Positions 650 to 33,090 of a stretch of DNA of 33,134 bases are shown one piece after another. The DNA comes from a virus (Duplodnaviria; Caudoviricetes). The stretch is from positions 1 through 33,134 of IMG/VR virus record IMGVR_UViG_3300029448_000195; one strand, 5' to 3'. The notes under the pieces were generated by a model. It saw only the letters and a program-made list of their open reading frames with translations, searched no databases and was not told the origin of the DNA. Made by a program: the position numbers and the translations under genes. Positions within the stretch are counted from its first letter, which is position 1. The number at the start of each line of letters is the position of its first letter.

Positions 650-1270
650 TTGGCCAATTTATTCGATTCAACTAACTATCCAAACTATGTTCCTTCAGAA
701 TTAAAGAAGGGTGATAACTGGAATTGGAAAAATGATAGTCTTGGAACAGACTATGACAACTCATCTTTTACTCTTAAATATGAATTTAATCTAATTGATG
801 GATCCACAAATACACATTTTCAAATTGTGGCCAGCAATGATGGATCTAATTACAAAGTTGAGGTTCCACATTCAACAACGACTAATTACACCGCTGGCGA
901 ATACAATTGGATAGCTAATATCCATCGTAATTCTGGCGGCAGAGTTAAAGTTGCTGAAGGGTTTATGACACTTCAAGATGATTACGCTACTACAAGTTCC
1001 TCGGTAAGATCTTTTGCCAAGCAAATGCTTGATGCGATTGAGGCCGTGGCTTTAAACAGAGCCACCATGGATCAATCATCAATGAGTATTGCTGGTAGAT
1101 CTCTTTCCAGAATGTCTATTGACGAATTAATGAGTTTTAGAGATCGTTTTAAAACTGAATACTTGCAAGAACTAAAACAAGCCAGGGCCAAGAACAAAAA
1201 AGGCACTGGTAACAATATCAAAGTTAGATTTGGTCAACACTCAACATTTAATCCAACAGACTTAACATAA
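650..1270 (+). CDS. Head-completion/adaptor protein: gpW-like C-terminus with an N-terminal beta-rich extension
   Basis: Lies between terL and portal; C-terminal SMSIAGRSLSRMSIDELMSFRDRFK resembles lambda gpW-like proteins. Confidence 0.7.
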   Translation: MANLFDSTNYPNYVPSELKKGDNWNWKNDSLGTDYDNSSFTLKYEFNLIDGSTNTHFQIVASNDGSNYKVEVPHSTTTNYTAGEYNWIANIHRNSGGRVKVAEGFMTLQDDYATTSSSVRSFAKQMLDAIEAVALNRATMDQSSMSIAGRSLSRMSIDELMSFRDRFKTEYLQELKQARAKNKKGTGNNIKVRFGQHSTFNPTDLT

Positions 1271-2754
1271 TGGCCTGGTACAACAACATTTTTAATAGAA
1301 CTCCTAAGCAACAAAAGAAAACTTTTAAAAGAAGTTACCAAGGAGCATCAACTGGTAGGTTGTTTGCTGACTTTTTAACATCTAGCAAATCAGCTAATGC
1401 TGAAATAAAAGATAATCTAAGAACTTTAAGAGATAGAGCCAGGGAATTAGCAAGAAATAACTCGTACATTAATCGTTATTTAAACCTAATGATCTCTAAT
1501 GTAATAGGTAAGCATGGAGTGAGAATCTCATCTAAGGCTAGAAATGATAATGGATCTTTGGATCTGTTGGCCAATAGACAAATAGAAGATGCCTGGAAGC
1601 AATGGACTAAGTACGGAGTGCCAACTGCAAATGGCAAGATGTCATTCCTTGATTGTCAAAAACTCTTTGTAGAATCTTTGGCCAGAGATGGTGAAGTTTT
1701 AGTTAGACATATAAAAACTAATAAAAATTCTTTTGGTTATCACATACAATTTTTAGAAGCTGATTACTTGGATGAAGATCTAAACACCACAGCAAAAAAT
1801 GGTAACAAGATCTGCATGGGTGTTGAGGTTGATTCTTATTATCGGCCAGTTGCTTATCATTTATTTAAAGAACATCCATATGACACCACTTACTCTGCTA
1901 AATACAACAAAAAGCACATAAGAGTTCCAGCAGAAGAAATTACACATTGCTATATGCCTAACAGGGCCGAGCAAACTAGAGGTGTAAGCCACATAGCAAC
2001 AGCCATGGCCAATGTAAAACAATTAGATGGTTATTTAGAGGCTGAGATTATTGCTGCTAGATTAGGGGCCAGCAAAATGGGTTTCTTTACTTCACCAGAC
2101 GGCAATTCATTTGTTGGTGATGATACTGAAGATACATTTAACCCAGTTATGAATGTAGAGCCTGGAACCTTCCATCAATTAAGCAGCGGCCAGGAGTTCC
2201 AAACATTTGATCCTAATCATCCAACAAGTGCATTTGAATCTTTTACAACTACAGTTTTAAGATCTATTGCTTCAGGACTAAATATCTCATATCACGCTTT
2301 AAGCAATGACTTAACTTCAGTTAACTATTCCTCTATCCGCCAGGGTGCTTTAGAAGATAGATCTAACTTTCAGATCTGGCAAGAATTTATTGTTCAGCAT
2401 TTTATAGATGTTGTATTTAAACGCTGGTTAGAAATGGCCATAACAACTAAAGCTATTAACTTGCCAATTGGTAAATTCAGCAAGTTTGCCAATTCAATAA
2501 ATTACATTCCAAGATCTTTTCCCTGGATAGATCCATTAAAAGAAATGCAAGCCAATGTGGTTGGCCTACAAAATGGAATTGTTACTTATTCAGATATTGT
2601 TTCTAGTTATGGAAAAGATGTAGAAGAAACATTTGAACAACATCAAAAAGAAAAGGAATTGGCGGATCAATATGGGATCTCCACGGCATTTCAGCCATTT
2701 GGTAATAAGGCCCCAGTTCCAGCAGAAGTAGAAGGAGATCCAGATAATGAATAA
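1270..2754 (+). CDS. Portal protein, lambda family
   Basis: 494 aa; motifs LRDRARELARNN, RDGEVLV, RAEQTRGVS, LSNDLTSVNYSSIR and WIDPLKE. Confidence 0.96.
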   Translation: MAWYNNIFNRTPKQQKKTFKRSYQGASTGRLFADFLTSSKSANAEIKDNLRTLRDRARELARNNSYINRYLNLMISNVIGKHGVRISSKARNDNGSLDLLANRQIEDAWKQWTKYGVPTANGKMSFLDCQKLFVESLARDGEVLVRHIKTNKNSFGYHIQFLEADYLDEDLNTTAKNGNKICMGVEVDSYYRPVAYHLFKEHPYDTTYSAKYNKKHIRVPAEEITHCYMPNRAEQTRGVSHIATAMANVKQLDGYLEAEIIAARLGASKMGFFTSPDGNSFVGDDTEDTFNPVMNVEPGTFHQLSSGQEFQTFDPNHPTSAFESFTTTVLRSIASGLNISYHALSNDLTSVNYSSIRQGALEDRSNFQIWQEFIVQHFIDVVFKRWLEMAITTKAINLPIGKFSKFANSINYIPRSFPWIDPLKEMQANVVGLQNGIVTYSDIVSSYGKDVEETFEQHQKEKELADQYGISTAFQPFGNKAPVPAEVEGDPDNE

Positions 2755-4687
2755 CAAGTTTCAAGAGGCAATTACGCCAAATGAAAAACATCCTAGCGAG
2801 GTAAGCATGGAATTTAAAAGTGAAAATCCCATCCTCAGCGAAACAGAAGCAGAAGATTTAATTGATTCTGCTGAAGTCATTGAGGATGTTGAATTAGATG
2901 CAACAGAAAGATTGTTTGACGATGAGGTAACTTATCGAACCATAGATCTATCCAGGGCATCTTATATTGACGAAGAAACCAGGAGAGTTCGCATAGGAGT
3001 GTCATCCGAAAGCGGAGTTGAAAGGTCATTTGGTTTAGAGGTTCTAAGCCATAAAGCAGAGGATGTGGATATGTCATTCATGGCCTCTGGATCAGCACCA
3101 TTATTGAACAACCATAATATGGATGAGCAAATTGGTGTTGTTGAAGAATATAAACTTGATGAGGCCGCAAAAAGAACAGTTGCGGTTGTAAGATTTGGTA
3201 AATCTGCACTTGCTCGTGAAGTCTTTGATGATGTAAAAGACGGCATAAAAAGAAACATATCCGTTGGCTACAGAGTAAATAAACTGGAACAGGCAAGCAA
3301 TAAGGAGATTGGCGATCATTACAGGGCTAGTTGGACACCTATGGAAGCATCCGTAGTTTCAATCCCAGCAGATCAATCCAAGCAAGTTGGCGTTGGCCGT
3401 TCTAAATCTAACAATCTTCCAAACACAAAGGTGAAAATAATGGAAAACGAAAAACAAGAAATTAATCTTGATGAAGTTAGATCTCAAAGTGCAGACGAAG
3501 CAAGAAAAGAATTTGCTAAAAACTCAAAAGAGATTTTAGATCTTGCTGCCAAGCACAATAAAAGAGATTTAGGTAATCAAGCTATTCAAGATCAATTATC
3601 AGTTGACGAGTTCAGAGGACAATTACTAGAAACTATTTCTAATGATGTGCCTTTAGAAACTCCAAATGAAATTGGTTTAAGCAAAGCTGAAACACAAAGA
3701 TTCAGTATTATGCGTGCTATTAATGCAATGGCAAATCCAACAGATCGTAAAGCACAAGAAGCTGCACGATTTGAAATGGAATGTTCAGAAGCTGCTCAAG
3801 AAGCATATGGCAGAACAGCCCAGGGAGTTATGCTTCCAGCTGAAATTATGGCTAATTGGAATCAGCGTGATATGTCTGCTGGTAGTGATGGCGATTTAAT
3901 TGGTGAGGATTACAGAGGACAAGATTTTATCGATGTTCTTAGAAACAACTCAGCAGTTATGCCTTTAGCAACCAATCTTAATGGCCTATCTGGCGATGTT
4001 AAGATCCCTAAGAAAACTGCGGCTTCAACTGCGGCTTTCATTAGTTCAGAAGGCGGAGCAGCTGGCGAGTCAGAAATGACAATTGGCAACATTAGTTTAA
4101 CCCCTCGCACATTAGGGGCGTTTACGGATGTAACTCGCCAATTAATGATCCAATCTTCATTGGATATTGAAAATCTAATCAGACAAGATCTTGCAGCTGG
4201 AATGGCTATTGCAATTGATGATGCTTGTTTAGAAGGTGATGGAAACAATGGCAAGCCAACAGGTATTACAAATACCACTGGCATTAATACTGTTTCATTA
4301 AGTTCAGCAGCGGCTCCAACATGGGCTGAAATGGTTAGCTTGGAATCAGCTGTTGGTGTTGATAATGCTTTATTAGGCAGACTTTCATACATTGTTAATC
4401 CTACTAACTATGGAACATTAAAATCTACATCTAAAGACACTGGAAGCGGTATCTTTATTGCAGATGGCAATGGCATGAATGGTTATCCAATTGTTTCTTC
4501 AAATCAATTGACTGCCAACAACTATGTATTTGGAAACTTTAGCGACTTGCTAATCGGCTTTTTTCAAGGGCTGGATGTGGTTGTGGATCCTTATACATCT
4601 TCAAGTTCTGGAACTGTTCGAGTAGTTGCACTTCAATCTGTTGATGCAGCTGTAAGAAATCCAGTCTCATTTGTAGTTGGTTCTTAA
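2747..4687 (+). CDS. Prohead protease-major capsid protein fusion (HK97 fold)
   Basis: N-terminal protease motifs (PLLNNHN, NISVGYRV, PMEASVVSIPAD), then scaffold/capsid (FSIMRAINA, FISSEGG, TRQLMIQSS, FGNFSDL). Alternative start at 2807 (SD GAGG); internal start at 3440 (SD AAGGTG). Confidence 0.94.
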   Translation: MNNKFQEAITPNEKHPSEVSMEFKSENPILSETEAEDLIDSAEVIEDVELDATERLFDDEVTYRTIDLSRASYIDEETRRVRIGVSSESGVERSFGLEVLSHKAEDVDMSFMASGSAPLLNNHNMDEQIGVVEEYKLDEAAKRTVAVVRFGKSALAREVFDDVKDGIKRNISVGYRVNKLEQASNKEIGDHYRASWTPMEASVVSIPADQSKQVGVGRSKSNNLPNTKVKIMENEKQEINLDEVRSQSADEARKEFAKNSKEILDLAAKHNKRDLGNQAIQDQLSVDEFRGQLLETISNDVPLETPNEIGLSKAETQRFSIMRAINAMANPTDRKAQEAARFEMECSEAAQEAYGRTAQGVMLPAEIMANWNQRDMSAGSDGDLIGEDYRGQDFIDVLRNNSAVMPLATNLNGLSGDVKIPKKTAASTAAFISSEGGAAGESEMTIGNISLTPRTLGAFTDVTRQLMIQSSLDIENLIRQDLAAGMAIAIDDACLEGDGNNGKPTGITNTTGINTVSLSSAAAPTWAEMVSLESAVGVDNALLGRLSYIVNPTNYGTLKSTSKDTGSGIFIADGNGMNGYPIVSSNQLTANNYVFGNFSDLLIGFFQGLDVVVDPYTSSSSGTVRVVALQSVDAAVRNPVSFVVGS

Positions 4688-4753: not shown

Positions 4754-4966
4754 ATGAAAGTTTTAATTTTGGCAGACACAGTTGCTAACAGTAAAAGAGT
4801 TCACGCTGGCGATGTGATTGAGGTTACTCAATCTGAGGCCCACATTTTAATTGGTTGTAATAAAGCAAGCGTTCATGTTGCTAAAGAGAAAAAAGAAAGC
4901 AATAGAAGCGTAGGCTTGGAAGTTTCTGAAACTCCAAAACCAAAGAAAAGATCTAAGGCCAAATAA
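4754..4966 (+). CDS. Small basic head-associated hypothetical protein
   Basis: The SD AGGG favours ATG 4754 (MKVLILADTV...AGDVIEV) over the track start at 4694; usual position after a capsid gene. Confidence 0.75.
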   Translation: MKVLILADTVANSKRVHAGDVIEVTQSEAHILIGCNKASVHVAKEKKESNRSVGLEVSETPKPKKRSKAK

Positions 4967-5370
4967 TGGCCCTAGAAAGTGCTGCTGATTTCAGTTCCTA
5001 TGTAGATTCAAGCGTAGGTTTTGGAATCACTGGTACTTTTTTTGAAGTGCAAGACACTTTATGGGATACCAGGCCAGGTCTAATTGATACTTGGTTCGAT
5101 GTCGATAGCGGGGCTTCACAAAATATTAGTCTTATTATGGATGAGGATTATTTTGCCATTGAAGGCAACAGCATTGCAGCTGAAGGTTATCAACCCAGGG
5201 CCACAATGAAGGCCAGCGATGCTCCTTACATATCTCATCAAGATAAATTAATTGTTGATGCTGTTACGACAGATCAAGGCAATGTTATCAAGCCAGCAAC
5301 CACATATTTAGTGGTTGAAGTGCAACCAGATAATGTTGGAATGTTAACGCTAGTTTTAGAGGCCGCATAA
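4966..5370 (+). CDS. Head-tail joining/closure protein (gpFII/Gifsy-2-like), paralog 1
   Basis: Position; C-terminal YLVVEVQPDNVGMLTLVLE; aligns by eye with the next ORF. Confidence 0.75.
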   Translation: MALESAADFSSYVDSSVGFGITGTFFEVQDTLWDTRPGLIDTWFDVDSGASQNISLIMDEDYFAIEGNSIAAEGYQPRATMKASDAPYISHQDKLIVDAVTTDQGNVIKPATTYLVVEVQPDNVGMLTLVLEAA

Positions 5371-5720
5371 TGAGCCAAATTAAATATGAAACAGAGTCTG
5401 ATATGGCCGCATATTTAGATCCTAGCTATGGCCATGGTTTAGCAGCAACTTACACCAGGAATGGTGTTAACACTTCACTCAATCTTATTTTGAATGAAGA
5501 ATATGTGGAATTAGACGAAGGATCTGGAGTAGAAGCAGTACAACCTATTGCTTATTGCAGATCTGTAGATATTCCAAGCGTTTCACATAACGACACTTTA
5601 GCGGTTAGTGCATACAAAGATGTAAACGGCAATATTTTAAAGGCCGCAACTAACTACAAGATAGTTAATGTGCAAAAAGATTTTAAGGGTTTTACGGCCC
5701 TAGTTTTAGAGGAACAATAA
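5370..5720 (+). CDS. Head-tail joining/closure protein (gpFII/Gifsy-2-like), paralog 2
   Basis: YKIVNVQKDFKGFTALVLE; colinear similarity to the previous ORF. Confidence 0.75.
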   Translation: MSQIKYETESDMAAYLDPSYGHGLAATYTRNGVNTSLNLILNEEYVELDEGSGVEAVQPIAYCRSVDIPSVSHNDTLAVSAYKDVNGNILKAATNYKIVNVQKDFKGFTALVLEEQ

Positions 5721-7056: not shown

Positions 7057-7205
7057 CAGAGGATGCTAATTTATTTCTGCAATACAGCCTTGCAGAAAGA
7101 CTAGGCAAAACCCTAGACGAACTACAGCAAATTAGTGTCCAGGAATACCAGGGCTGGATTGCTTATTTAGAAATCTTGGAAGATAGAAGGAAGCATGGCA
7201 AATAA
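7044..7205 (+). other. Programmed -1 frameshift site (A AAA AAG, 7044-7050) and gpT-like extension
   Basis: The -1 frame reads GLTEDANLFLQYSLAERLGKTLDELQQISVQEYQGWIAYLEILEDRRKHGK* (stop 7203-7205) and has no ATG of its own. Confidence 0.88.
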
Positions 7206-8943
7206 AAAAGTCAAAATTGAGTTAACAGCTGTTAATAAAACACACGCTGCTTTTAGTAAGGTCACCTCTGGCTTAAAAACAGTTGGTGGTGCAGCTGGCT
7301 CAGCAGCCAAGGGTGTTGCTGGCGTAGGATTAGCTGCGGCTGCAACAGCTACAGCACTTGCTGTTCTGGTTGGCAAATCTTTTGAATATATTGATACGCT
7401 TGACAAAACTTCCAGAAGAACAGGCATTGCTACAGACACATTGCAAGCCTTTCAATTGGCTGCAATTGAATCTGGATCTTCCGTTGAACAGGCCCAAAAA
7501 GGTTTAGAAAAATTTAGTAGATCCATTGGTGATGCCGCCAGTGGTTTAAAAACCCAAGCAGATATTTTTAAAGATCTTGGTATAGATCTAAAAAATTCCC
7601 TTGGCGAAATGCGAGATCCAACACAAATATTATTTGAGGTTGCAGAAGGGCTTAAAAATTTAGGTTCTGAAGCTGAGAGATCAAGAGTGCTTGCTAATTT
7701 ATTTGGTAGGGCTGGAATGCAAATGAGTGAGGTTTTTAGGGATGGTGCCAAAGGATTAGAACAGTTTATAGAAAGATCAAGAGAACTTGGAATAATCTTG
7801 CCAGATAAAGTTATTAAAAATGTAGCTAAATTTAACGATCAATTTTCAGTTTTAAAATTACAAATAAAAGCAGTTGGAAACAACATAACTGGTGCATTGG
7901 TGCCAGCTTTTTCTCTTGTAGTTGGCGAACTTACAAATATGCTTACAAGCACAAATGAGGCTGAAGGCGGATTTGAAAGTTTAGGTAAAAATATGGCCAT
8001 AAGCATAATGCAAGGGGTTAAATTTGCGGTTCTATCTGTCCAGGAATTATTTAGAGGAATTGAACAACAATTTTTAACCTTTGCTGCAAGTGGTGCTGGC
8101 AAATTATTTGGTTTTGATCTAACGCCTATACAAAAAATGCAAATTGAATTAATCAACGCTCAAAATAAAGTTGAGAGTATTCAAAAATCTATAACAGATT
8201 TCAACACTGGCCAGCAAGATACAATTTTTGGGATTAGCCCCACTGACATAAGTTTGCTAAATAACAGCCTATTTTCAGCAGAGCAAAATGTTATTAAATT
8301 GAAAGAGCAACTAGGTGATATGTTGCCACCAGAGAAAAGCACTGCTGTTTTAGACTTTTTAGATAAAATGATTAAGGCGGTTAAAGAGGGCGGTGATGCT
8401 TGGGAAGTGCTTGGCGATAAAGGCATAAACTCAGTTACAAATTTACAACAGCCATTGCAAGTATTTGACAGTCAATTAAAAGATATTAATAAAAGCATGG
8501 GTACTGCAATAGTTTCTTCAATGAAAAAATTTGAAGATACTATTATGGAAGGCCTAAAAAATGGAAAATTTGCATTTGAAGATTTTGCAACTTTTGTTGT
8601 TGAACAGTTGCTAAGAATTGCTATACAGCAAATGATAATTGCACCTATGACATCTAGCCTTTCAGCAATGTTTCCTAAATTTGATGGCGGTGGATATACA
8701 GGCATGGGTTCAAGGAGTGGCGGAGTAGATGGTAAAGGTGGCTTTCCAGCAATACTACATCCAAATGAAACAGTCATAGACCATACAAAAGGCCAGGGCA
8801 TGAGTTCTGGTGCCAACATAACATTTAATATCCAGGCCAATGATGCCGCTGGGTTCGATCAATTATTAAATAGCAGAAAACAAATGATTACTGCAATGAT
8901 AAATAACGCCATGAACAATCGTGGCAAAATGGGGGTAGTGTAA
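7195..8943 (+). CDS. Tape measure protein
   Basis: 582 aa, Ala/Gly-rich and helical; C-terminal FDGGGYTG...GGVDGKGGFPAILHPNETVIDH. Confidence 0.92.
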   Translation: MANKKVKIELTAVNKTHAAFSKVTSGLKTVGGAAGSAAKGVAGVGLAAAATATALAVLVGKSFEYIDTLDKTSRRTGIATDTLQAFQLAAIESGSSVEQAQKGLEKFSRSIGDAASGLKTQADIFKDLGIDLKNSLGEMRDPTQILFEVAEGLKNLGSEAERSRVLANLFGRAGMQMSEVFRDGAKGLEQFIERSRELGIILPDKVIKNVAKFNDQFSVLKLQIKAVGNNITGALVPAFSLVVGELTNMLTSTNEAEGGFESLGKNMAISIMQGVKFAVLSVQELFRGIEQQFLTFAASGAGKLFGFDLTPIQKMQIELINAQNKVESIQKSITDFNTGQQDTIFGISPTDISLLNNSLFSAEQNVIKLKEQLGDMLPPEKSTAVLDFLDKMIKAVKEGGDAWEVLGDKGINSVTNLQQPLQVFDSQLKDINKSMGTAIVSSMKKFEDTIMEGLKNGKFAFEDFATFVVEQLLRIAIQQMIIAPMTSSLSAMFPKFDGGGYTGMGSRSGGVDGKGGFPAILHPNETVIDHTKGQGMSSGANITFNIQANDAAGFDQLLNSRKQMITAMINNAMNNRGKMGVV

Positions 8944-17383: not shown

Positions 17384-17384
17384 T

Positions 17385-22199: not shown

Positions 22200-22597
22200 G
22201 ATCCCTGGGCGAATCGTTAGTTAAGTCATGCTTGCTTGAATACTCAGATTTTTGCTATGAAACTTGCGAATCGCATCCAGCAGATCTCATCGTTGAATTT
22301 GGTAATGCCTTATATAAGGTGCAAGTTAAATCCAGGAACAAATCAAAAGAGGGCAAGTTCACATTTCCTATTGAAAGCCATAGGGCTAAATCTGATACAC
22401 ATAAACATTATCATTGCGATATTTATGCTTTTGTATTTTTCCCAGGTAAAAGAATCCTCTTTGTACCAAACACAAGCGGCCAGAAATATTTTATATTCCA
22501 AGAAACCGCCATTATTGATGGCATGGAGTTTTCGTCTCTCCAGGACACTTTAGATGCACTTTCACAGATCCCAGTATTAGATAATCTCCTGGAATAA
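22157..22597 (+). CDS. PD-(D/E)XK endonuclease
   Basis: GSLGE...PADLIVE...YKVQVKS...CDIYAFV. Confidence 0.8.
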   Translation: MSKSNTDNHNAKRLGSLGESLVKSCLLEYSDFCYETCESHPADLIVEFGNALYKVQVKSRNKSKEGKFTFPIESHRAKSDTHKHYHCDIYAFVFFPGKRILFVPNTSGQKYFIFQETAIIDGMEFSSLQDTLDALSQIPVLDNLLE

Positions 22598-23928: not shown

Positions 23929-23995
23929 TAGGATTGTTATCTTTAAATATATATAAATATAGAGGAGACTTTGTTATTTATAGGAGTTGAATAGG

Positions 23996-24688: not shown

Positions 24689-24697
24689 GAGAAAATT

Positions 24698-25213
24698 ATG
24701 GATATGGACAAAAATACACTAAAGACATTTTGCAAATATCAGCAGACTGTATTGTTTGAGGAATTAGAGTTTCAAAAATTTAGCGAGACTGTTGTTACAG
24801 ATCCCCAGGAAAAGGTTGTTTCATATTATATTTTTGAACAGCACCTGGAGAATAATCATCCTTCACAAACAGATATTTTGTATGCCTTACGAATGTCTCA
24901 TTCAACTTTGCGAAAGATTTTAAAGAAGCTGATTAAGATAGGCTATATAAAAGAATGTGAAAAACATGATGCCAGGTTTACCCATTATCAGCCAACTGAA
25001 ATGGTGATAGAGGGTTTTAAGATCCACACGGCCAGACATTTTAAAACCTTGTTTAGCATCGCTACACAACTGCTGCAAGATAATAATACTATTGAAATAA
25101 TACGATCCGCTATTGATATTAAGCTGGGTTCTTACGCCAACCAAAAGCCATATGGTGATATGGATCTTGATAACATAAAAAAAATATTAGTTACTTTGGA
25201 AACTAAAAGATAA
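24698..25213 (+). CDS. Winged-helix (MarR-like) DNA-binding protein
   Basis: SQTDILYALRMSHSTLRKILKKLIKIGYI...DAR...YQPT. Confidence 0.72.
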   Translation: MDMDKNTLKTFCKYQQTVLFEELEFQKFSETVVTDPQEKVVSYYIFEQHLENNHPSQTDILYALRMSHSTLRKILKKLIKIGYIKECEKHDARFTHYQPTEMVIEGFKIHTARHFKTLFSIATQLLQDNNTIEIIRSAIDIKLGSYANQKPYGDMDLDNIKKILVTLETKR

Positions 25214-25247
25214 TAGTGTTGCGAATTAGCACTAATTTGGAACACTA
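25214..25247. promoter_or_regulatory. 34-bp dyad (operator and/or terminator hairpin)
   Basis: TAGTGTTGCGAATTAG-CA-CTAATTTGGAACACTA, arms match 14/16; a T-rich tract follows. Confidence 0.7.
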
Positions 25248-25274
25248 ATAATCTTTGTTTTTTTATTTAACATA

Positions 25275-25303
25275 TTGACTGACTTAATAAAAATAAATAT
25301 AAA
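25275..25303 (+). promoter_or_regulatory. Putative sigma70 promoter, possibly giving a near-leaderless mRNA
   Basis: TTGACT, 17-bp spacer, TATAAA; ATG 25315 has no SD. Confidence 0.5.
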
Positions 25304-25314
25304 TATACAAATAT

Positions 25315-25617
25315 ATGAGCAACGGACATACAACAAAATTTAGAACTCACACTGGCCCCAGGCAAACAGAAGGATATAGAAGGGAAGTGCCAGCTGCAAA
25401 AAGAATTACCATTCCAGCTGAGAACAAGGATCAATATGCAATGGCGGCCAAAGAATTTATGCAGCTGGGCCAGAAAATGCAAAAGGCTTTAAATCAAAAA
25501 ACATCTTTTATCAGCCAGAAAACTTATCTGGACTATTTAATTAATAACACCAATTGGAACCTAAAGGCCCATGCGGATGCAAACAACAACCCATATCACT
25601 ACAAAGGCAACACTTAA
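25315..25617 (+). CDS. Hypothetical protein
   Basis: 100-aa ORF. Confidence 0.68.
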   Translation: MSNGHTTKFRTHTGPRQTEGYRREVPAAKRITIPAENKDQYAMAAKEFMQLGQKMQKALNQKTSFISQKTYLDYLINNTNWNLKAHADANNNPYHYKGNT

Positions 25618-25659
25618 AACTGGGTGTACCCTTTTGATATTTACAAGGAGTTTATAAAC

Positions 25660-25992
25660 ATGGAACAATTTAACCAGCCAGAACTAAACCTTACAACAGT
25701 AGGTGATAGAGCCTCAAAAAATTTATGTAAAGTAAAAAAGACTTCGCATAATATATATTCAATCCAACAAGCCTATATTCCAGGCAGGGCAGACAAAACA
25801 GAAAAGTTAGGATCTAAAAGTATAGCACTTAATGTCATGGGAAAACCCCAGAAGGTGCGATTTAAAAGGAATCTCATTTCAGCTGTAACCAGTGAACATG
25901 GGGCAACCCTTTTGGAACTTATAAACCAAAAAGAGCCAATTATTCTCCGTGATTCCGTGGAAGAAGTCATTTATTTAATTAGATCTAAATAA
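25660..25992 (+). CDS. Hypothetical protein (C-terminus loosely FlbD/LytTR-like)
   Basis: The SD AAGGAG favours ATG 25660; ...NLISAVT...TLLEL...IILRDSVEEVIYLI. Confidence 0.65.
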   Translation: MEQFNQPELNLTTVGDRASKNLCKVKKTSHNIYSIQQAYIPGRADKTEKLGSKSIALNVMGKPQKVRFKRNLISAVTSEHGATLLELINQKEPIILRDSVEEVIYLIRSK

Positions 25993-26202: not shown

Positions 26203-27150
26203 ATGGGAACAGTAGGAAAAATTACAGACGATGGTTACGCTTCATGCAGCTTGCTGCCAAGAATTTGGACTAAAGATGTTACAACTTTAGATAACTGCAT
26301 AAGAGCCAGGAAGGGCGAAAGTGTTAGAACGCCTGGTAACAGAATTACTGAAATGGGTAATGTTCTGGAAGAACCATGCATTAGGCGAGCAGCTGAGTTG
26401 CTTGGCCTGGAAGAATTAGAGGTAGATGTTAAAAAAAGATTTACCCATGACACTTTAGAGTTACAGGCTTCATTAGATGCAAGGGCCGTGGCAAATAACT
26501 TGGTGATACAAGATGATTCAGAGTGGGGTATATACACTCCTGGAGCAACCAAGGTACTGCTCAACGGCCCAGGAGTAATTGAAAACAAAGTTACCAGGGA
26601 TTACCCAGCAGCTGAGTTAGAGGAATGGAGAGGCCTAATACAAATGCAAGGCCAGATGGAAGTTATGGGATATGACTGGGGTGTTGTAAGTGTGCTTTAT
26701 CAATCAACAGATTTTAGACTTTATGTCTTTAAAAGAGATCCAACATTTGCAGCTGTTCTGGCTGAAAAGATTAATGACTTTGAAAGAAGGATCCAGGAAG
26801 AAGATTACTGGCCAGCCAAAGTTCCAGAGGATGTTCATAAAATTTACAAAGATCCCTATGGCAAAGAAGATGTCATAGAACTAGATGCCTCTGTTGAAGA
26901 TACAGTTAAGGATCTCCTGGCTGCAAAAGAATTAGAAAAAAATGCAACTGCAATAGTTAAAGATCTTAATTTAAAATTAATGGTTGAATTAGGCAATCAT
27001 GTCAAAGGCCGTGCTGGTGAATATGATCTTTCATTAGGAACAATTACCAGAAAGCCAACGCCAAAGAAAATGGTTCCAGCCAATCCAGGTGGAACTTATA
27101 GAGCAAAAACAGTAAGGGTTAAAAGAAGGGCCGCACCTGTAGGGAGTTAA
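26203..27150 (+). CDS. YqaJ/lambda-exonuclease family protein
   Basis: GNVLEE, QASLDA, VIENK and IQMQGQMEV motifs. Confidence 0.88.
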   Translation: MGTVGKITDDGYASCSLLPRIWTKDVTTLDNCIRARKGESVRTPGNRITEMGNVLEEPCIRRAAELLGLEELEVDVKKRFTHDTLELQASLDARAVANNLVIQDDSEWGIYTPGATKVLLNGPGVIENKVTRDYPAAELEEWRGLIQMQGQMEVMGYDWGVVSVLYQSTDFRLYVFKRDPTFAAVLAEKINDFERRIQEEDYWPAKVPEDVHKIYKDPYGKEDVIELDASVEDTVKDLLAAKELEKNATAIVKDLNLKLMVELGNHVKGRAGEYDLSLGTITRKPTPKKMVPANPGGTYRAKTVRVKRRAAPVGS

Positions 27151-27189
27151 CTTAGGAGAGTTATGCACGGCCCAGATAAAATTATAAAA

Positions 27190-27206
27190 TATAAACAACA
27201 AAAGGG
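27190..27206 (+). promoter_or_regulatory. 17-bp motif TATAAACAACAAAAGGG, copy 3
   Basis: Exact copy; followed by the imperfect palindrome GCTTTTATA-TAT-TATAAAAAGC. Confidence 0.85.
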
Positions 27207-27257
27207 GCTTTTATATATTATAAAAAGCAACTATATTTATACATGGAGAGTTTAATT

Positions 27258-27482
27258 ATGAATGAGTTTGATAAATACGAAGAACAAGGCGGCAAGGTCA
27301 ACTTGCGAGTATCGCCAGAACTAAGAAAAAAAATAAAACAAGTCAGCCTGGATAGGGAAGTGCCTATGCAAAGCATTGTTGAGTATTGCTTAAAAGTTTG
27401 CATTTATGCGATTGATAGCAATCCAACAAAAAGCGGCAGTGTTGTTTTAGATGTTGAGTTAGATCTTGAAAAAATATGCTAG
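27258..27482 (+). CDS. Ribbon-helix-helix (Arc-like) DNA-binding protein
   Basis: KVNLRVSPELRKKIKQVSLDREVPMQSIVEYCLK; the SD GGAG favours ATG 27258. Confidence 0.75.
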   Translation: MNEFDKYEEQGGKVNLRVSPELRKKIKQVSLDREVPMQSIVEYCLKVCIYAIDSNPTKSGSVVLDVELDLEKIC

Positions 27483-27571
27483 TTAGAGGCATAGAGATCC
27501 CAGAACATTTGCAACATTTACCAAGGCATAAGTTAATACTTTTGCTATACCTATTTGGCAGGGTTGTATGA
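27476..27571 (+). CDS. 31-aa hypothetical protein (not in ORF track)
   Basis: MLVRGIEIPEHLQHLPRHKLILLLYLFGRVV*; overlaps both neighbours, with ATGA coupling downstream. Confidence 0.6.
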   Translation: MLVRGIEIPEHLQHLPRHKLILLLYLFGRVV

Positions 27572-27849
27572 GTATTTTTACATTTACAGCTGGGGGTGCA
27601 ACATATGGCAGCACTGCAAATGTTGCTACGATTGAGGATAAAACTGTTGCATTGCAAAGAGAAATTAACAGGCTTAATGAAATTATTAAGTATCAAGAAG
27701 AACAAATAGAAAAGCTGCAATCTACACCAGCTGGATTTACTAAAGGCCAACTTAAATTATTAATACAAAAGATGCACCCAGATAAAAATGCTGGATCCGC
27801 AGAATGTGCAATTTTGTTTAAAAAGCTTATGGACATTAAAAATGGTTAA
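27568..27849 (+). CDS. Coiled-coil protein with a C-terminal partial J-domain (HPD)
   Basis: LKLLIQKMHPDKNAGSAECAILFKKL. Confidence 0.65.
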   Translation: MSIFTFTAGGATYGSTANVATIEDKTVALQREINRLNEIIKYQEEQIEKLQSTPAGFTKGQLKLLIQKMHPDKNAGSAECAILFKKLMDIKNG

Positions 27850-28258
27850 TTCCAGAAACAAGGGTGCGGCCTTTGAACGCCATATATGTAATTTCTTAAA
27901 TGATCTCCTGGAGAAAAAAGGCCTGGATAGATCTGTTAAAAGGAACCTGGATCAATATCAAACTAAAGGCCTGGCAGATCTCTACTTTGAGAACTTTGCC
28001 ATTGAGTGCAAACGCTACAAGGAACGAAAAGACAATTGGCCCATAACTAAATGGTGGGAACAAACAGTAGCAGCAGCTGGCGATAAATACACGCCAATAC
28101 TAATTTATAAATATGATCGCCAGGAAATTAAGGCCGTCATACCATTGTCATACTTACATCCAGATCTAAAAGAGGTTATGGATCCTTCCAGGATCTGCAT
28201 AACTAACTTTAAACATTTCCTACAAATAGCAGAGGCCAAAATTGAAGATCGTTTTTGA
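27842..28258 (+). CDS. Holliday junction resolvase-like PD-(D/E)XK nuclease
   Basis: MVNSRNKGAAFER...RNLDQYQ...ADL...FAIECKRY...WWEQT...PILIYKYDR. Confidence 0.85.
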   Translation: MVNSRNKGAAFERHICNFLNDLLEKKGLDRSVKRNLDQYQTKGLADLYFENFAIECKRYKERKDNWPITKWWEQTVAAAGDKYTPILIYKYDRQEIKAVIPLSYLHPDLKEVMDPSRICITNFKHFLQIAEAKIEDRF

Positions 28259-28472
28259 TGATGAGTTTGAGGAATATCTATTTGGCCGCTGGGCTGACTA
28301 TAGAGAAAGCCTGGGCCATGAAGATATTGAATTAGATTTATTTGAATTTGAGGATGCACATAAAGAACAGATTTTAGCTTTTTATAAATTGTCATTAATT
28401 AATTTAGAAAAAAGCAAAAGGGATTACCAAACTTGGTTATCAAAATTAAACAAGAAAAGAACTTTACATTAA
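28242..28472 (+). CDS. Hypothetical protein
   Basis: 76 aa; TTG start; fills the gap between neighbours. Confidence 0.6.
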   Translation: MKIVFDDEFEEYLFGRWADYRESLGHEDIELDLFEFEDAHKEQILAFYKLSLINLEKSKRDYQTWLSKLNKKRTLH

Positions 28473-28483
28473 AAGGAGTAAAA

Positions 28484-29068
28484 ATGGGATTATTAGATAG
28501 TGGCGGTGGTAACAGCAGTTACCTGGTTTACAAACATGGCGATAAAAATTTCTGGTTAGGCAAAGATGACATTTGTGAATTTGATAAGTTGGTTGTTGAT
28601 GTTGATAGCGTTAAAACTGGCTGGGGCATTTATGCAGAAGATAGGTATCAATTTGTTTGGGGTGAGAAGCCTGGCATTTTAGGGCCAAAGCCAGCTGACA
28701 TAGGCGAGGAATATTGGCGTAAAGCCTTTAGCGTTGATTGCTACATTAAAGACACTGAGGAAAGTGTTTTATGGCAATCAATGACTGTAGGTAACTGCAT
28801 GGCCTTTAATGCTTTAACTGATACTTACTTGGATAGAATTGAGGAAAAGAAGCCTGGCCAAGTAGGTGCATTTATTTCCCTTAAAGATGATAAGAAAAGA
28901 TTAAAGGTTGCATATAAGGATGAGAAGAAAAACACATCCTGGCCTTTGTTTGAATTTCATAGCTGGATAGATAGGCCAGAAGGTTTTGTATCTGTAACAG
29001 CAGCAGCTGAACAGAGAGAAGATACAGCTGATACAAGCAGCGTTAATGAATCAGACATCCCATTTTAA
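28484..29068 (+). CDS. Single-stranded DNA-binding protein-like
   Basis: SD AAGGAG; DSVKTGWG...FHSWIDRP; acidic tail ending SDIPF; lies upstream of the primase. Confidence 0.72.
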   Translation: MGLLDSGGGNSSYLVYKHGDKNFWLGKDDICEFDKLVVDVDSVKTGWGIYAEDRYQFVWGEKPGILGPKPADIGEEYWRKAFSVDCYIKDTEESVLWQSMTVGNCMAFNALTDTYLDRIEEKKPGQVGAFISLKDDKKRLKVAYKDEKKNTSWPLFEFHSWIDRPEGFVSVTAAAEQREDTADTSSVNESDIPF

Positions 29069-30997
29069 ATGCAGCAAGTGGACTGGGCCAGCCTGGCCAC
29101 CTCTGTTGCGGTTGAAATTTTAGGTGAACCAAAAACTAAAACAACTACACATTGGCGGTGGGGCAATAAAGGATCTTTAGCATTAGCAGTAGAAGGCGAA
29201 GGCAAGGGTAACTTTTATGATTTTGAACAAGATAAGAGTTTTACTTGCCATGAGTTCATTATTGAAAATGGCAGAGATCTCCAGGCCACATTAGAAGCAC
29301 ATGGTTATAAAAAGTTTGATCGAGAGGGGGCTGGAATTGATGTACAACTTTCTCCCCAAGAAAAGAAGGCTCCCTCTAGGTCATTCGATAAGTTCCAGAT
29401 GCAAAACCTGGCCAATGCAGCTGAGATCAAAGTGCAATATAGCGACACATTTTGGGTTATGCGATTCCCAGAAGGCCATCACATTAAACAAAAATACGCA
29501 CCATTTACCAAACAAGAAGATGGCTCCTGGATCCTGGCAAGGCCAGAGGCCCCATTACCTATTTATTTATCAGATGGTGATACAGAGGGCTCAGTTTTGA
29601 TCGTAGAGGGTGAAAAAGCGATGCTCGGTGCGGCTAAGTTATTCCAGGGCCAAGTCTGTTGCCATCATGGCGGTGTTAATAATTGGAAAGAGGGCAAATC
29701 AGATTGGACTCCAATTTATGGCCGCAAAGTTTTAATCTGGCCAGATAACGATGAAGCTGGCCTAAAAATGGCTACAGAACTAAAGGCTTATTTAAACAGC
29801 AAAAAGTGCCAGGTAGAAATTATAAAAATACCAGATGATTTTGCTGAAAAAGATGATCTATGGGATGCAGCTGCAAACAACTATTTTGATTCCCTGGAAT
29901 CTTTTGCAGATTACATAGAAAACAACCTGGACAGATCTGCAAGAGGATCTTTTGAACTTATGTCTATTGCTGATATGGAAGCAAACATTAAAGAACCAGA
30001 ATGGTTAATAGATCAGATTCTGGAACGCAATACCATTGGATCTATATTTGGATCTCCTAAATCTGGTAAGTCATTAATCAGTTTAAGCATGATGATGGCC
30101 ATTTCTAATGGCACTGAATGGTTTGGCCATAGTGTTAAACAAACGCCAGTTGTTTTGTTTTGTGGTGAAGGTGAAAGATCTATGCACAAAAGAATATTGG
30201 CCTGGGCCAAGTTCAATGAGCAATCAGTAAGAGATAACCCATTTAGGATGTCTAACAGGCCAGCCAGGATCTTAGACGATGAAGATTTTGCACTCATTAT
30301 GCAAACGCTTAAAAACACCTATGAGGAATTAGGCGATATTGGCTGTGTTTGTATTGATACGCTGCAAAGAAACTGGGGTGGTGGTGATGAGAACTCTAGC
30401 AGCGATATGGGTAAGTTTATCCAGCGAGTAGATGAAATTAAATACGAGTTTGATTGCAATGTAACTCTGGTACATCACTCTGGCCATGTAGGTGGTAAAT
30501 CAAGGGCCAGAGGATCATCTGTTTTGCCGTCTAGTGTTGATTTTGAGTTCCAGGTGGATAGAAAGAATGGCCCAGAAGATGATCCCAGGATGTACACCAC
30601 AATTAAACAAACATTAAATAAAGAGGGAGCAGATCTACCGCCAATAAATTTTGAGGTGATACCAGTACACAATTTAAAGGGCTATGTTTCCCAGGGATCT
30701 GCAACAGTAGATCTAACTGAGTTTGTTCCTGGTAATGAGGTTGAAGATCCAGAGAATTTAACGGCCATAAATAACGCCATAACTATTATTCATTCTGAAA
30801 AAATTAAAGCTGATATAGATCCATTTGAAGCCATGGTTAGCATAGATGAAATAGTTGATTACCTGGATGATCCAAAAAAGAACAAAAAATGGGTTTATAA
30901 CAATATTAATAAATACAAAGACCATAACTCTCATTGCTGGGTAAAGGCTGAACGAGGCCAATACCAGTGCGAAAACCTATTAACTACGCCTTTTTAA
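29069..30997 (+). CDS. Primase-helicase (TOPRIM plus RepA/AAA_25-type helicase)
   Basis: WRWGNKGSL; LIVEGEK and IWPDNDEAG (TOPRIM); GSPKSGKS (Walker A); CIDTLQR (Walker B); LVHHSG; RGSS. Confidence 0.93.
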   Translation: MQQVDWASLATSVAVEILGEPKTKTTTHWRWGNKGSLALAVEGEGKGNFYDFEQDKSFTCHEFIIENGRDLQATLEAHGYKKFDREGAGIDVQLSPQEKKAPSRSFDKFQMQNLANAAEIKVQYSDTFWVMRFPEGHHIKQKYAPFTKQEDGSWILARPEAPLPIYLSDGDTEGSVLIVEGEKAMLGAAKLFQGQVCCHHGGVNNWKEGKSDWTPIYGRKVLIWPDNDEAGLKMATELKAYLNSKKCQVEIIKIPDDFAEKDDLWDAAANNYFDSLESFADYIENNLDRSARGSFELMSIADMEANIKEPEWLIDQILERNTIGSIFGSPKSGKSLISLSMMMAISNGTEWFGHSVKQTPVVLFCGEGERSMHKRILAWAKFNEQSVRDNPFRMSNRPARILDDEDFALIMQTLKNTYEELGDIGCVCIDTLQRNWGGGDENSSSDMGKFIQRVDEIKYEFDCNVTLVHHSGHVGGKSRARGSSVLPSSVDFEFQVDRKNGPEDDPRMYTTIKQTLNKEGADLPPINFEVIPVHNLKGYVSQGSATVDLTEFVPGNEVEDPENLTAINNAITIIHSEKIKADIDPFEAMVSIDEIVDYLDDPKKNKKWVYNNINKYKDHNSHCWVKAERGQYQCENLLTTPF

Positions 30998-31002
30998 TAT
31001 GC

Positions 31003-31114
31003 AAACTCTCTTAACTCTCTTTAATACTCTCTTTACTCTCTTTGTAAATCGCATATATCTATTAATACTCTCTCTCCTCTCGCGTGTCTTTAGACACGAG
31101 AGGAAGGGAGTTTT
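31003..31114. repeat. ACTCTCTT direct repeats plus a long hairpin (putative origin and/or terminator)
   Basis: ACTCTCTT at 31005, 31014, 31026 and 31035, with a variant at 31067; hairpin TCCTCTCG(CG)TGTCT-TT-AGACACGAGAGGA followed by AGGGAGTTTT. Confidence 0.7.
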
Positions 31115-31132
31115 AAATGAGGCGGTGGGAGC

Positions 31133-31630
31133 ATGAATAATATTTATGAAAATAATGCTAATAAATCGATCTCTGAAGTTAACAAAAAAGAACAATGGAT
31201 TGAACGCTATTGGAACAAAAGCCGTCTTTTATCGATTGTTAGTTATGGTATGAGAATTAGATTCCAAAAAGCTGAAATGCTTTACAAAGATTCTCTTTAT
31301 ACAACCAATTACAAAAACATAAGCAAGATGGCTGAAATGATGGTCAGAGGATATGAAGCATTAATTAAAGAAGCTGAGGATCTTGGTTGTACCAGATTAT
31401 CAGTAACCATGTGGCCGCATGAACACAAAAAGACCAGGTACATGATTGTTAAAAATGATGAGGAGTTTTGGTTGGCCCATAACGCTTATGCAGAAGAACC
31501 AGATTGCATCGTTATATGCCTAAGCGAACTTTTCAAGATGGCCGATGATGATTTGTTAAAAACAAAAAAGATGATCCAGGAGACAACAGGACAACCTGGA
31601 AAAATTATTGACTACAAGAAAAATGACTAA
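31133..31630 (+). CDS. Hypothetical protein
   Basis: 165 aa; SD-like GAGG/GGGAG; follows the primase-helicase. Confidence 0.75.
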   Translation: MNNIYENNANKSISEVNKKEQWIERYWNKSRLLSIVSYGMRIRFQKAEMLYKDSLYTTNYKNISKMAEMMVRGYEALIKEAEDLGCTRLSVTMWPHEHKKTRYMIVKNDEEFWLAHNAYAEEPDCIVICLSELFKMADDDLLKTKKMIQETTGQPGKIIDYKKND

Positions 31631-31907
31631 ATGGCATGGCGGTAAAGGATCTGGAAAAAGAAAGAATGATGATCAAGAACAATATGCAGAAAACTGGGAA
31701 AAAATATTTAACAAGGAAAAAGATATGCCAACTAAATTAAAAAAATCTTCTGTGATCTTTAATAAGGCCAGCAGAAAAAAAGAAATTGAACATCATTACA
31801 TCAAGACTACAGATACTAAGATCCTGGAACAAATGCTTGCAGCTGACACTACCAGGCCAAAGATTAAACAAAAGATAAGAAATGAATTAACCAGGAGAAG
31901 CAAATGA
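31623..31907 (+). CDS. Basic hypothetical protein, possibly two fused mini-genes
   Basis: MTKWHGGKGSGKR...YAENWEKIF, then MPTKLKKS... with its own SD (AAGGA) before ATG 31725. Confidence 0.65.
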   Translation: MTKWHGGKGSGKRKNDDQEQYAENWEKIFNKEKDMPTKLKKSSVIFNKASRKKEIEHHYIKTTDTKILEQMLAADTTRPKIKQKIRNELTRRSK

Positions 31908-32065
31908 AATGTTTTAACTGCAATGCGGATATGAAATTTCAAGAAGAAAAAGAAATATCCAGATACAACGATTTATACGATCACAAACTAACTTTTAAAT
32001 GCCTGGAGTGCAATTCATGTGCTGAGGCTTATGTTCCAAAGGAAAACAACAATGCAGATAGATAA
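31904..32065 (+). CDS. 53-aa zinc-ribbon protein (not in ORF track)
   Basis: MKCFNC...FKCLEC; ATGA coupling; SD AGGAG. Confidence 0.75.
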   Translation: MKCFNCNADMKFQEEKEISRYNDLYDHKLTFKCLECNSCAEAYVPKENNNADR

Positions 32066-32306
32066 AATAATTAAACAAAAGGGCCAGGAATATGGAAGGC
32101 CAGATATGTTCATGGGCCAACTGGCCCAGGTATGGGGAGCCATGTTAGGCAAACACTTATCAAGTACACAGGTTGCGGCCATGATGATGGCCTTCAAAGC
32201 AATAAGAGGATGTAACAATCCAGGGCACCAGGATAGTTTTCTTGATGCACATGGCTACTCAAAGATTGCGATGGATATATTAAAAGATGATGAGGACTTT
32301 GTGTAA
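32052..32306 (+). CDS. DUF6378-like protein
   Basis: KGQEYG.P...LAQVW...VAAMMMAFKAIR...HQDSFLDAHGY. Confidence 0.75.
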   Translation: MQIDKIIKQKGQEYGRPDMFMGQLAQVWGAMLGKHLSSTQVAAMMMAFKAIRGCNNPGHQDSFLDAHGYSKIAMDILKDDEDFV

Positions 32307-32330: not shown

Positions 32331-32335
32331 TGAAT

Positions 32336-32506
32336 ATGAGTAAGACTAAAGATATAGATCCAAACAAACTAAAGAAGCAAATAGAATCTGGCAAATCATC
32401 ACATGATGCCGCCTTATCTCTAGGCGTTAGTAAATCAACTGTACTAAAGAAGGCTAAGGAGTTTGGCTTATCGTTTAGCAATAAATCCTGGTGGAGATCA
32501 CTATGA
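32336..32506 (+). CDS. 56-aa helix-turn-helix protein (not in ORF track)
   Basis: MSKTKDIDPNKLKKQIESGKSSHDAALSLGVSKSTVLKKAKEFGL...; ATGA coupling to the next gene. Confidence 0.78.
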   Translation: MSKTKDIDPNKLKKQIESGKSSHDAALSLGVSKSTVLKKAKEFGLSFSNKSWWRSL

Positions 32507-33090
32507 AGATAGATGTTAAGACAAACATTAAAGAAGTAACTAAAGACCTATCCAGGACACAAAAGAAGCAAATCCCATTTGCTACAGCTAATGCAATTAA
32601 TACAACACTGTTTCAGCTAAGAAAAGAAATGGGTAAGCAGACAAAAAAGAAATTAGATAATCCAACTCCATTTACTCAAAGAGGATTTATGGTTCAAAAA
32701 GCAAATAAGAAAACTTTATTTGGGTTGCTGTTTTTAAAGGACGAGGTTGCAGATTATTTAAAGTACCAGATAGATGGTGGCGTTAGATCTAGCAGCAAAA
32801 AGTTTGCGATACCAACAGACAATGCCAAATTAAATAAATATGGAAACATACCTGGTAAAAAATCTGGGGTTGTTAAAGGGAAAAACCAAAAGATATTAAC
32901 AATTAATAATATGACTGGTGTCTACCAAACACATAAAGATAAAACAGTTAAGCTGCTGATAGCATTTAAAGATAAAGCTGTTTATAAAATTAAATTTCCT
33001 TTTTACAAAATTGGTCAAGGCTTTATTAATAGTAAATTTAATAGAAATATGATTGATGCACTAGATAGAGCATTAAAGAGTGCTAAATAA
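32503..33090 (+). CDS. Neck/tail completion protein (lambda gpZ/HK97 gp10-like)
   Basis: KQIPFATANAINTT...LDNPTPFTQRG...YLKYQIDGG; very basic; start at ATG 32503. Confidence 0.72.
   Translation: MKIDVKTNIKEVTKDLSRTQKKQIPFATANAINTTLFQLRKEMGKQTKKKLDNPTPFTQRGFMVQKANKKTLFGLLFLKDEVADYLKYQIDGGVRSSSKKFAIPTDNAKLNKYGNIPGKKSGVVKGKNQKILTINNMTGVYQTHKDKTVKLLIAFKDKAVYKIKFPFYKIGQGFINSKFNRNMIDALDRALKSAK

Follow-up and report, generated by a model that had tools for sequence, protein, structure and literature searches.

Why would a phage fill its genome with short words of the kind that restriction enzymes recognize, when, by textbook accounts, such targets should be lost from phages or be neutral for them? 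The question is raised by a DNA of 33,134 bases from IMG/VR virus record IMGVR_UViG_3300029448_000195 (the window, below, is this whole stretch at its full length), a single siphophage genome with a G+C content of 37.6% and all genes on one strand. Four words, GGCC, RGATCY, CCWGG, and CAGCTG, are in excess throughout it, while sister lineages have erased the same words. In the clade of the window, preference acts on complete sites, which are gained and kept in excess of neutral expectation. As a tentative explanation, ranked first among those considered, we propose weak selection for sites that the host methylates in phage DNA.

Four Words Are in Excess across the Window

The initial annotation had counted words by hand in two genes, and its counts were reproduced exactly. 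The portal gene contains 11 GGCC, 14 GATC (11 of them RGATCY), 7 CCWGG, and no GGTC/GACC, CCGG, or GCGC; the recombinase-like gene at 23987-24688 contains 11 GGCC, 10 GATC, 7 CCWGG, and 1 GGTC/GACC. Over the entire window there are 196 GGCC, 227 GATC (160 as RGATCY), 157 CCWGG, and 55 CAGCTG, and the excess extends to positions 1-1270, ahead of the portal gene. The enrichment that the annotation had described survived 200 synonymous codon shuffles of 43 open reading frames (ORFs), at 2.6- to 3.7-fold for the four words. Relative to shuffle means, we observed 190 GGCC versus 72.9 (2.6-fold), 156 RGATCY (AGATCT, AGATCC/GGATCT, and GGATCC) versus 53.7 (ca. 2.9-fold), 149 CCWGG versus 40.2 (3.7-fold), 51 CAGCTG versus 19.1 (2.7-fold), and 221 GATC versus 127.3. 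The 2,047 non-coding bases carry 22 sites, with 3.9 expected. Maximal-order Markov models gave observed/expected (O/E) ratios of 1.55 for GGCC, 1.39 for GATC, and 1.92 for CCWGG, which are lower than the shuffle ratios because the excess passes to sub-words.

Other parts of the earlier description stood only in part. The GATC excess proved to be an excess of RGATCY, YGATCR not being enriched. CAGCTG, reported as frequent, is so relative to codon shuffles but not relative to its own 5-mers (55 copies versus 50.9 in the Markov model). The loss of GGTC/GACC is real when compared with shuffles (37 versus 78.5, or 0.47 of the mean) but vanishes from the window when the regression model described below includes competing words (β = −0.07 ± 0.20); in a pooled set of eight clade sequences, β was −0.4 ± 0.1. 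The loss is for the most part a by-product, and direct avoidance of GGTC/GACC, one of the causes suggested initially, is not needed to account for it.

Restriction-type words other than these four are purged from the window: CCGG, ACGT, GGWCC, and CCTCC are absent, GCGC and CCTGA occur twice each, and 35 of the 64 six-base palindromes are missing. Several asymmetric words are likewise rare (CCTCC/GGAGG, CTCTTC, GAAGAC, TGCCCA, and GACGC 0 each, GGATAC 1, CCTGA 2, CCTGC 7); CCTGA and CCTGC are over-used in purging relatives, opposite to the window. ATNNTA was under-used in all four modelled sets.

Preference Acts on Whole Sites

Base choice at 9,944 synonymous third positions of the window was fitted with a conditional logit model containing terms for codon, junction dinucleotide, 38 avoided words, the neighbors expected to be depleted by Vsr-type very-short-patch repair, and each motif at each position. 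For CCWGG, β was 2.89 at position 1 and 2.93 at position 2; for RGATCY, it was 3.02, 2.96, and 2.92 at positions 1-3, the A/T and R/Y positions being preferred as strongly as C. GGCC gave 2.31 and 1.51, and CAGCTG 1.29 at position 2, positions 1 and 3 having just six opportunities each. The pooled set of eight clade sequences yielded similar values across positions. Neighbors one C-to-T change away were at, near, or above expectation (odds ratios of 1.71 for CTWGG, 1.26 for RGATTY, 1.16 for CAGTTG, and 0.93 for GGTC), and further neighbors had odds ratios of 0.78 (TAGCTG, not significant), 1.34 (GGCT), and 2.58 (TCTGG). Because β values are alike at every tested position and neighbors are not depleted, the preference acts on whole sites and not on one cytosine.

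An unguided stepwise search chose CCWGG, GGCC, AGATC, CCAG, and GATCC first and did not choose GGTC. GCWGC and GCSGC, whose raw counts are high, were neutral in the model. Once the four words had been modelled, a preference was left for CCAG/CTGG (odds ratio 2.2), CGCCA, CCGCA, CACGGC, and GTTCCA. Conversion of star sites was ruled out as a cause, since one-off neighbors are not generally depleted.

Sister Lineages Purge the Same Words

Relatives were gathered by portal, primase, tail, and lysin scans, and 119 distinct portal loci (at least 60% identity and at least 3 kb) were classed by their content of GGCC, RGATCY, and CCWGG. Sixty-one loci were purging (O/E of 0.5 or less for the three words), 33 were enriched, and 25 were intermediate. 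The purging loci, 596 kb in total, hold 24 GGCC, 16 RGATCY, 4 CCWGG, and 36 CAGCTG; in the complete relative G269 (34.6 kb), the corresponding numbers are 0, 0, 1, and 0. Since sister lineages erase them, a strong case can be made that the host group has type II restriction-modification systems directed at the four words, in keeping with the link to methyltransferase or restriction targets drawn in the initial annotation; the words are putatively methylated in virions. Phosphorothioate marks were also considered in view of the leftover preference for CCAG, but type II targets better explain degenerate words of 5-6 bases and the purging of these.

In a tree of 96 portal proteins, the clade of the window had a support of 1.0, and L153 and L071/L073/L160 fell outside it, among purging lineages, in the part of the tree listed. 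The L160 lineage had β of 3.5 for CCWGG, 1.8 for RGATCY, 1.5 for GGCC, and 1.1 for CAGCTG, and it enriches CCWGG without purging CCTGA. The L178/L459/L460 lineage favored RGATCY (2.6), CCWGG (2.4), and GCSGC (1.3) and avoided CAGCTG. Lineages that tolerate the words were near or below zero (CAGCTG −1.0 in L130, RGATCY −1.0 in L173, CCWGG 0.7 in L125). The lineage of L066, L067, and L159 purges nothing, with CCGG, GCGC, and GGWCC at or above expectation, which points to a host lacking such systems or to some general shield.

Scanning viral contigs with a word pattern gave 117 loci (80 with flanks), mostly background or clade members. Two were phages with no detected gene in common with the window: podovirus L458 (CCWGG 2.2 ± 0.3, RGATCY 1.6 ± 0.3) and a 6-kb phage fragment with curli genes, L457 from G271 (2.3 ± 0.6 and 2.4 ± 0.7 for the same words, GGCC 1.5 ± 0.4), whose genes we take to be curli-assembly-like, FecR-like, and CHASE2-like. 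Both were found by a pattern that contains favored words, and the matched stretch was excluded for O/E and retained in the model.

Some relatives encode methyltransferases. C5 enzymes are present in enriched (L090, L217), intermediate (L044/L140), purging (L224, L227), and distant (L254) loci, and N4/N6 matches were found in L088, L213, L121, L178, L169, and L240. A phage-encoded methyltransferase was ruled out as the cause, being absent from the window and sporadic in both word states. The C5 enzymes at L044:3517-4821, L090:1243-2433, L217 near 10949, L227 near 2789, and L224 near 4302 have long variable regions built of common, shuffled modules, and the enzymes differ in their place of insertion.

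Sites Are Both Gained and Kept

Turnover was estimated from 322 pairs of extant relatives (minimum-spanning-tree edges, at most 16% DNA divergence) by counting isolated synonymous differences in codon alignments of enriched-clade genes against matched neutral changes, leaving out changes that touch avoided words. The pairs are unpolarized, and the direction of change was assigned under an assumption of stationarity. Site-destroying differences numbered 357 versus 938 expected (0.38; gene bootstrap 0.34-0.41), and site-creating differences 357 versus 95 expected (3.75; 3.2-4.2). Neither pure protection, which leaves gains at about expectation, nor pure creation, which leaves losses there, accounts for the data, because both ratios depart from 1. 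Site-preserving switches were neutral (88 versus 86), as were flanks (1.10 at 1-3 bp, 1.00 at 4-8 bp), and changes creating avoided words were suppressed (269 versus 1431, or 0.19). Gains came by every substitution class, with transversion and C>T gains at 2-6-fold. Among transitions, the inner positions of GGCC had fewer losses (C>T, 12 versus 51.6) and more gains (T>C, 12 versus 2.1) than the outer ones, and position 2 of CCWGG gained by T>C at 7.15, compared with 1.87 for position 1, with faster turnover; counts are small in both cases.

The gain/loss ratio corresponds to a scaled strength S of ca. 2.3. Models of selection or conversion at S = 2.33 give a loss ratio of 0.39 if variants are segregating and 0.25 if they are fixed, and the observed values (0.37, 3.76) agree with the one-parameter prediction for segregating selected variants. 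The loss ratio was 0.57 (17/30) below 2% divergence, 0.34-0.38 at 2-16%, and 0.43 at 16-30%, a trend that fits selection or conversion. Codon-compatible places per 1,000 codons were 14-21% more frequent in enriched than in purging homologs, control words being flat; protein sequence is thus shifted as well as synonymous choice. Contigs of four runs aligned to the primase gene showed strain differences only.

Genome Content and Distribution of Sites

The window is, to judge by its genes and ends, the near-complete genome of a marine phage in which terS and most of terL are the only missing parts, because its final bases match the contig starts of relatives that run into terS; the missing part holds just terS and terL in those relatives. 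The record contains one contig only. The gene order is the C-terminus of terL, portal, protease-capsid, tail genes, holin, lysin, PD-(D/E)XK nuclease, recombinase-like gene, exonuclease, RusA-like resolvase, and primase-helicase. As stated in the initial annotation, there is no methyltransferase gene among the 43 ORFs, nor did a six-frame profile search of the window find one. Features that bear on the word signature are as follows, site use being the number of codon-compatible places occupied by a site.

1-33134, no strand: word excess over the whole genome, about one site per 60 bp
1270-2754, plus strand: lambda-type portal gene, 29 of 75 places occupied
2747-4687, plus strand: protease-capsid gene, low site use (18 of 133 places)
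7195-8943: tape measure gene, low site use (16 of 109 places)
16373-20014, plus strand: variable tail-gene block, the four words nearly missing and avoided words missing too
22157-22597, plus strand: PD-(D/E)XK nuclease gene downstream of the lysin gene, occurring in enriched and purging lineages
23987-24688, plus strand: serine-recombinase-like gene, 27 of 54 places used; all 16 of 16 matches in enriched loci
24698-25992, plus strand: winged-helix gene and two small genes, confined to enriched loci at E < 1e-6
26203-32306, plus strand: recombination/replication arm (exonuclease, RusA-like resolvase, primase-helicase), highest site use, without a methyltransferase
33100-33134, plus strand: genome end, matching the starts of contigs from relatives that extend into terS

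Site use in the replication arm reaches 53 of 104 places in the primase gene and 19 of 26 in the resolvase gene, and the word excess is weak in several tail genes. Within the variable tail block, only 2 of 77 places are used in 17385-18905 and 5 of 55 in 18905-20014; positions 17072-17487 have 80% DNA identity to a purging relative, and the block was probably imported recently. Tail blocks that have been exchanged in recent times are devoid of favored words, yet avoided words are already gone from them; therefore, purging is fast and accumulation slow.

Homologs of the serine-recombinase-like protein (window 23996-24688; 14 proteins in total) are confined to the enriched clade. Nearly all of 13 aligned homologs have an N-terminal YLPNKK motif, where resolvases carry the catalytic YxRxS, and the protein is likely a catalytically dead DNA-binding derivative. 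The winged-helix gene and the two small genes are candidates for a phage-side factor; an atlas look-up of the protein at 25624 gave no informative family. The PD-(D/E)XK nuclease was ruled out as a cause, as lineages of both word states have it. At 4966-5720 lie two neighboring head-closure-like paralogs, each a match to phrog_82.

A Possible Host Group

In one SAR86 single-cell assembly, 50 kb of host genes adjoin a purging relative (portal identity 70%). At about 50150-50500 of contig G001:C4, SAR86 genes pass straight into the phage exonuclease gene, and no integrase or tRNA was seen there; the junction could stem from a prophage or from chimeric amplification. Protein clusters pointed to no host name. 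The nearest cultured phages are Roseobacter phages CRP-406, CRP-701, and CRP-811, which resemble the window in their lambda-type portal and size of 29-33 kb, while portal identity is only 47-49%.

A host with the same signature, which the initial annotation proposed to look for, did not emerge from the SAR86 order and Gammaproteobacteria, the two groups sampled. On SAR86 chromosome stretches, β for each of the four words was within 0.2 of zero. CAGCTG did not exceed ca. 0.38 per kb in 266 SAR86-order genomes, against 1.66 in the window, and AGATCC did not exceed ca. 330 per Mb in 251 SAR86-order genomes, against 1,222, or ca. 550 per Mb per strand in 401 gammaproteobacterial genomes (genome sizes rounded; the unpublished G314, G415, G569, and G581 are among the 401 and are not needed for the result).

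Methyltransferases are patchy in the SAR86 order, with C5 enzymes in 53 and N4/N6 enzymes in 31 of 266 genomes. No Vsr was detected in these 266 incomplete genomes of a candidate host group. In 106 ORFs scanned near the methyltransferases, we found nucleases of the BglII/BstYI, MvaI/BcnI, TdeIII, Bsp6I, and AlwI families; a PDB look-up of a putative SAR86 nuclease gave nothing. The namesakes of the first two families cut RGATCY or AGATCT and CCWGG or CCSGG, respectively, and those of the others cut GGNCC, GCNGC, and GGATC. These targets of the namesakes match the purged words. In 3 of 10 SAR86 islands, picked for their methyltransferases, MzaB-E stand beside a C5 methyltransferase, and MzaB-D do so in a fourth. 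In L464, L465, L466, and L467, the neighboring C5 methyltransferase is Dcm/DrmMII-like, and some of these islands have WYL and RmuC genes. DrmA and DrmB were not among the best five PADLOC families for the 97 proteins scanned, including the 92 SAR86 proteins of the 10 islands and nine shorter loci; no genome-wide search was run.

Discussion

According to the explanation that we favor, the host population would methylate GGCC, RGATCY, CCWGG, and CAGCTG in phage DNA, and that DNA would benefit slightly from each methylated site, perhaps because a host defense that takes methyl marks for self is dampened; weak selection would then lead to whole words being gained and retained above the neutral rate. 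When a marine population is large, an S of ca. 2.3 per site requires no more than a minute effect on fitness. A host factor is indicated because the force hits whole sites, on phage DNA, across unrelated phages, and selection for self-marking sites, an option that the initial annotation had listed, fits the data. We hold with moderate confidence that the force is selection rather than conversion. As for the host system that gives the reward, an Mza-type system with a C5 methyltransferase in SAR86 is at best a weak candidate. It is possible, though more doubtful than selection as such, that restriction-site avoidance is here reversed, some marine phages amassing host methyltransferase targets as passports against a methyl-silenced defense (e.g., of the Mza type, in SAR86) while sisters on other hosts erase them.

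Several observations weigh against this explanation. The sites show no even spacing (the coefficient of variation of gaps is at or above that of the null, per word and pooled), and several members of the clade have tail blocks of 2 kb that are poor in sites, whereas a sensor that reads site density should penalize such blocks. Constant methylation might be expected to rescue avoided words that overlap favored sites. Among 300,585 unique 21-mers from 71 enriched loci, tested with 28 avoided words, no such rescue was seen: GGCCGG and RGATCCGG were at 0, and RGATCTAGA was at 3/46 versus 16/247 elsewhere. The exceptions, CTGCAG (8/20) and TCTAGA (6/20), were not clearly backed by matched next-base counts. 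Four words would require either four rewarding systems or a single general system. Defense by class 1 DISARM reportedly rose with the number of unmethylated sites, and the protection of phages did not scale with their site number (bioRxiv 2021.12.28.474362). The trend of losses with divergence depends on 17 events, the neutral class may itself be constrained, and selection and biased conversion are not separable by pair data. On the host side, the link to SAR86 is the sole clue, comes from 1 of 266 genomes, and concerns a purging relative; no HaeIII- or PvuII-family nuclease was present among the 106 ORFs scanned.

Methyl-directed gene conversion is the main rival, and we consider it rather unlikely. 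Recombination heteroduplexes would be repaired toward the strand with the methylated site, so that site alleles spread without a fitness benefit. Conversion mimics selection in every pair statistic; under it, sites should be independent and additive and obey no rule of spacing, and site-poor blocks should be tolerated; uneven spacing, such blocks, and the lack of overlap rescue therefore suit it. It would also explain why separate lineages have their own word subsets at similar strengths (β ca. 1.5-3.5), and the phage, which exchanges genes, has an exonuclease and a resolvase of its own. However, conversion presupposes site methylation, which is putative here, nothing near this density exists in SAR86 chromosomes or in the 401 gammaproteobacterial genomes, and we know of no enzyme that carries out methyl-directed conversion for four different marks. 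A ratchet at the level of replication, as discussed for HIP repeats, has a low probability in our estimate. In that scheme, when a new mismatch completes a site, the new strand is methylated and repair preserves the site, while a mismatch that disrupts a site is corrected to the methylated parent. This gives more gains and fewer losses at all positions, and fast methylation could leave switches and flanks neutral, as may be gathered from the accessible text of PMC4390886. The ratchet, however, predicts ratios independent of divergence, whereas the closest pairs lose more (0.57 versus 0.34-0.38, 17 events); it offers no reason for the data to fall on the selection curve; it should mark the host chromosome, and SAR86 chromosomes are unmarked; and the published model, in the same accessible text, saturates at ca. 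1 site per kb, compared with ca. 17 per kb in the window.

No better is the chance, in our view, that the words serve unmethylated, being bound or nicked by a host or phage protein (e.g., the winged-helix or the recombinase-like protein), their identity with restriction targets reflecting a reused host enzyme. The absence of overlap rescue for avoided words and the confinement of gene block 23987-25992 to enriched loci would agree with such a use, but these genes may merely mark common ancestry, unrelated phages without detectable common genes favor the same words, and one protein for four unrelated words is improbable. Very-short-patch repair by Vsr (or, alternatively, a shield against deamination of one methylcytosine) at four methyltransferase motifs now appears very improbable; such repair was the leading idea of the initial annotation. 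The GGTC/GACC deficit relative to codon shuffles speaks for it, and the transition asymmetries at inner GGCC and at position 2 of CCWGG leave room for a small position-specific part. As a main cause, it is contradicted because the preference is position-independent: C-to-T neighbors are not depleted, TCTGG, the position-1 comparator, is itself favored, and gains come by transversion and C>T. No Vsr was found in the 266 incomplete SAR86-order genomes either. We give as little credence to passive displacement, in which the purging of ca. 30 other words drives synonymous choices into the tolerated few. The neighbors CCTGA, CCTGC, GAGCT, GGWCC, and CCGG are indeed purged in the clade. Displacement is nevertheless contradicted because covariate-adjusted estimates keep the preference: odds ratios of 4-20 hold with avoided words in the model, and the bias stays in pair counts that omit changes touching those words. 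Furthermore, word-tolerating lineages (L130, L173, L125) lie near or below zero, and L160 enriches CCWGG with CCTGA unpurged.

Comparison with known systems places the signature within methylation-linked motif over-representation, outside the Vsr, HIP, and phage-methyltransferase classes. Restriction-site avoidance is documented in phages, and the accessible part of Rusinov et al. (2018, PMC6286503) gives avoidance or a slight excess (bias ca. 1.1) only. Sister lineages show the classic form of it, as does the window for CCGG, ACGT, GCGC, GGWCC, and others, while for the four words the sign in the window is reversed, these being gained and kept. HIP1 and the alternative HIPs of cyanobacteria are strongly over-represented palindromes tied to methyltransferase targets, as the four words putatively are; for them, in the accessible text of Elhai (2015, PMC4390886), repair ratchet versus selection is open. 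Over-representation after composition control is common to both; the sites of the window are not regularly spaced. The window signature differs in being in phage DNA and not on the chromosome of the putative host, in comprising four words at ca. 17 sites per kb without a GmeC rule, and in having close relatives of opposite state as a built-in control. Xu et al. (2018, PMC5861425) are said to deal with cyanobacterial HIP sequences as well. Over-represented CCWGG is shared with the Dcm/Vsr signature; here, in contrast, CTWGG is not depleted, the effect reaches beyond the methylated C, and no vsr was found in the 266 incomplete genomes of the candidate host group. In their long, modular variable regions, the C5 enzymes of L044, L090, L217, L224, and L227 resemble the multispecific C5 methyltransferases that Bacillus phages SPR and phi3T encode, whereas the window has no such enzyme and those of its relatives are sporadic in both word states.

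DISARM and Mza are methyltransferase-paired defenses, and class 2 DISARM methylates CCWGG, a favored word here. The SAR86 C5 enzymes that adjoin MzaB-E score high against the DrmMII profile. Methylated DNA reduces the ATPase activity of DrmAB (PMC9142583). Marine viral methylomes include CCWGG and GGCC (PMC9516812), and a few siphoviruses without methyltransferases were found methylated (PMC8919816). No report was found of a phage lineage amassing several restriction targets that its sisters purge, in a literature search outside which most subscription papers and supplements fell.

One phage family thus holds both states of the same words, purged to zero or favored ca. ten-fold per site, with unrelated phages converging on the second of these. 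This implies either a host defense or other process that rewards methylated sites or a methyl-directed drive on phage DNA, and both options bear on the open question of selection versus repair for HIP-like repeats. The signature could yield a grouping of uncultured phages by host methylome from sequence only. If marked sites do serve as passports, whether a phage genome favors or purges a word would reveal the marks that its host writes and rewards.

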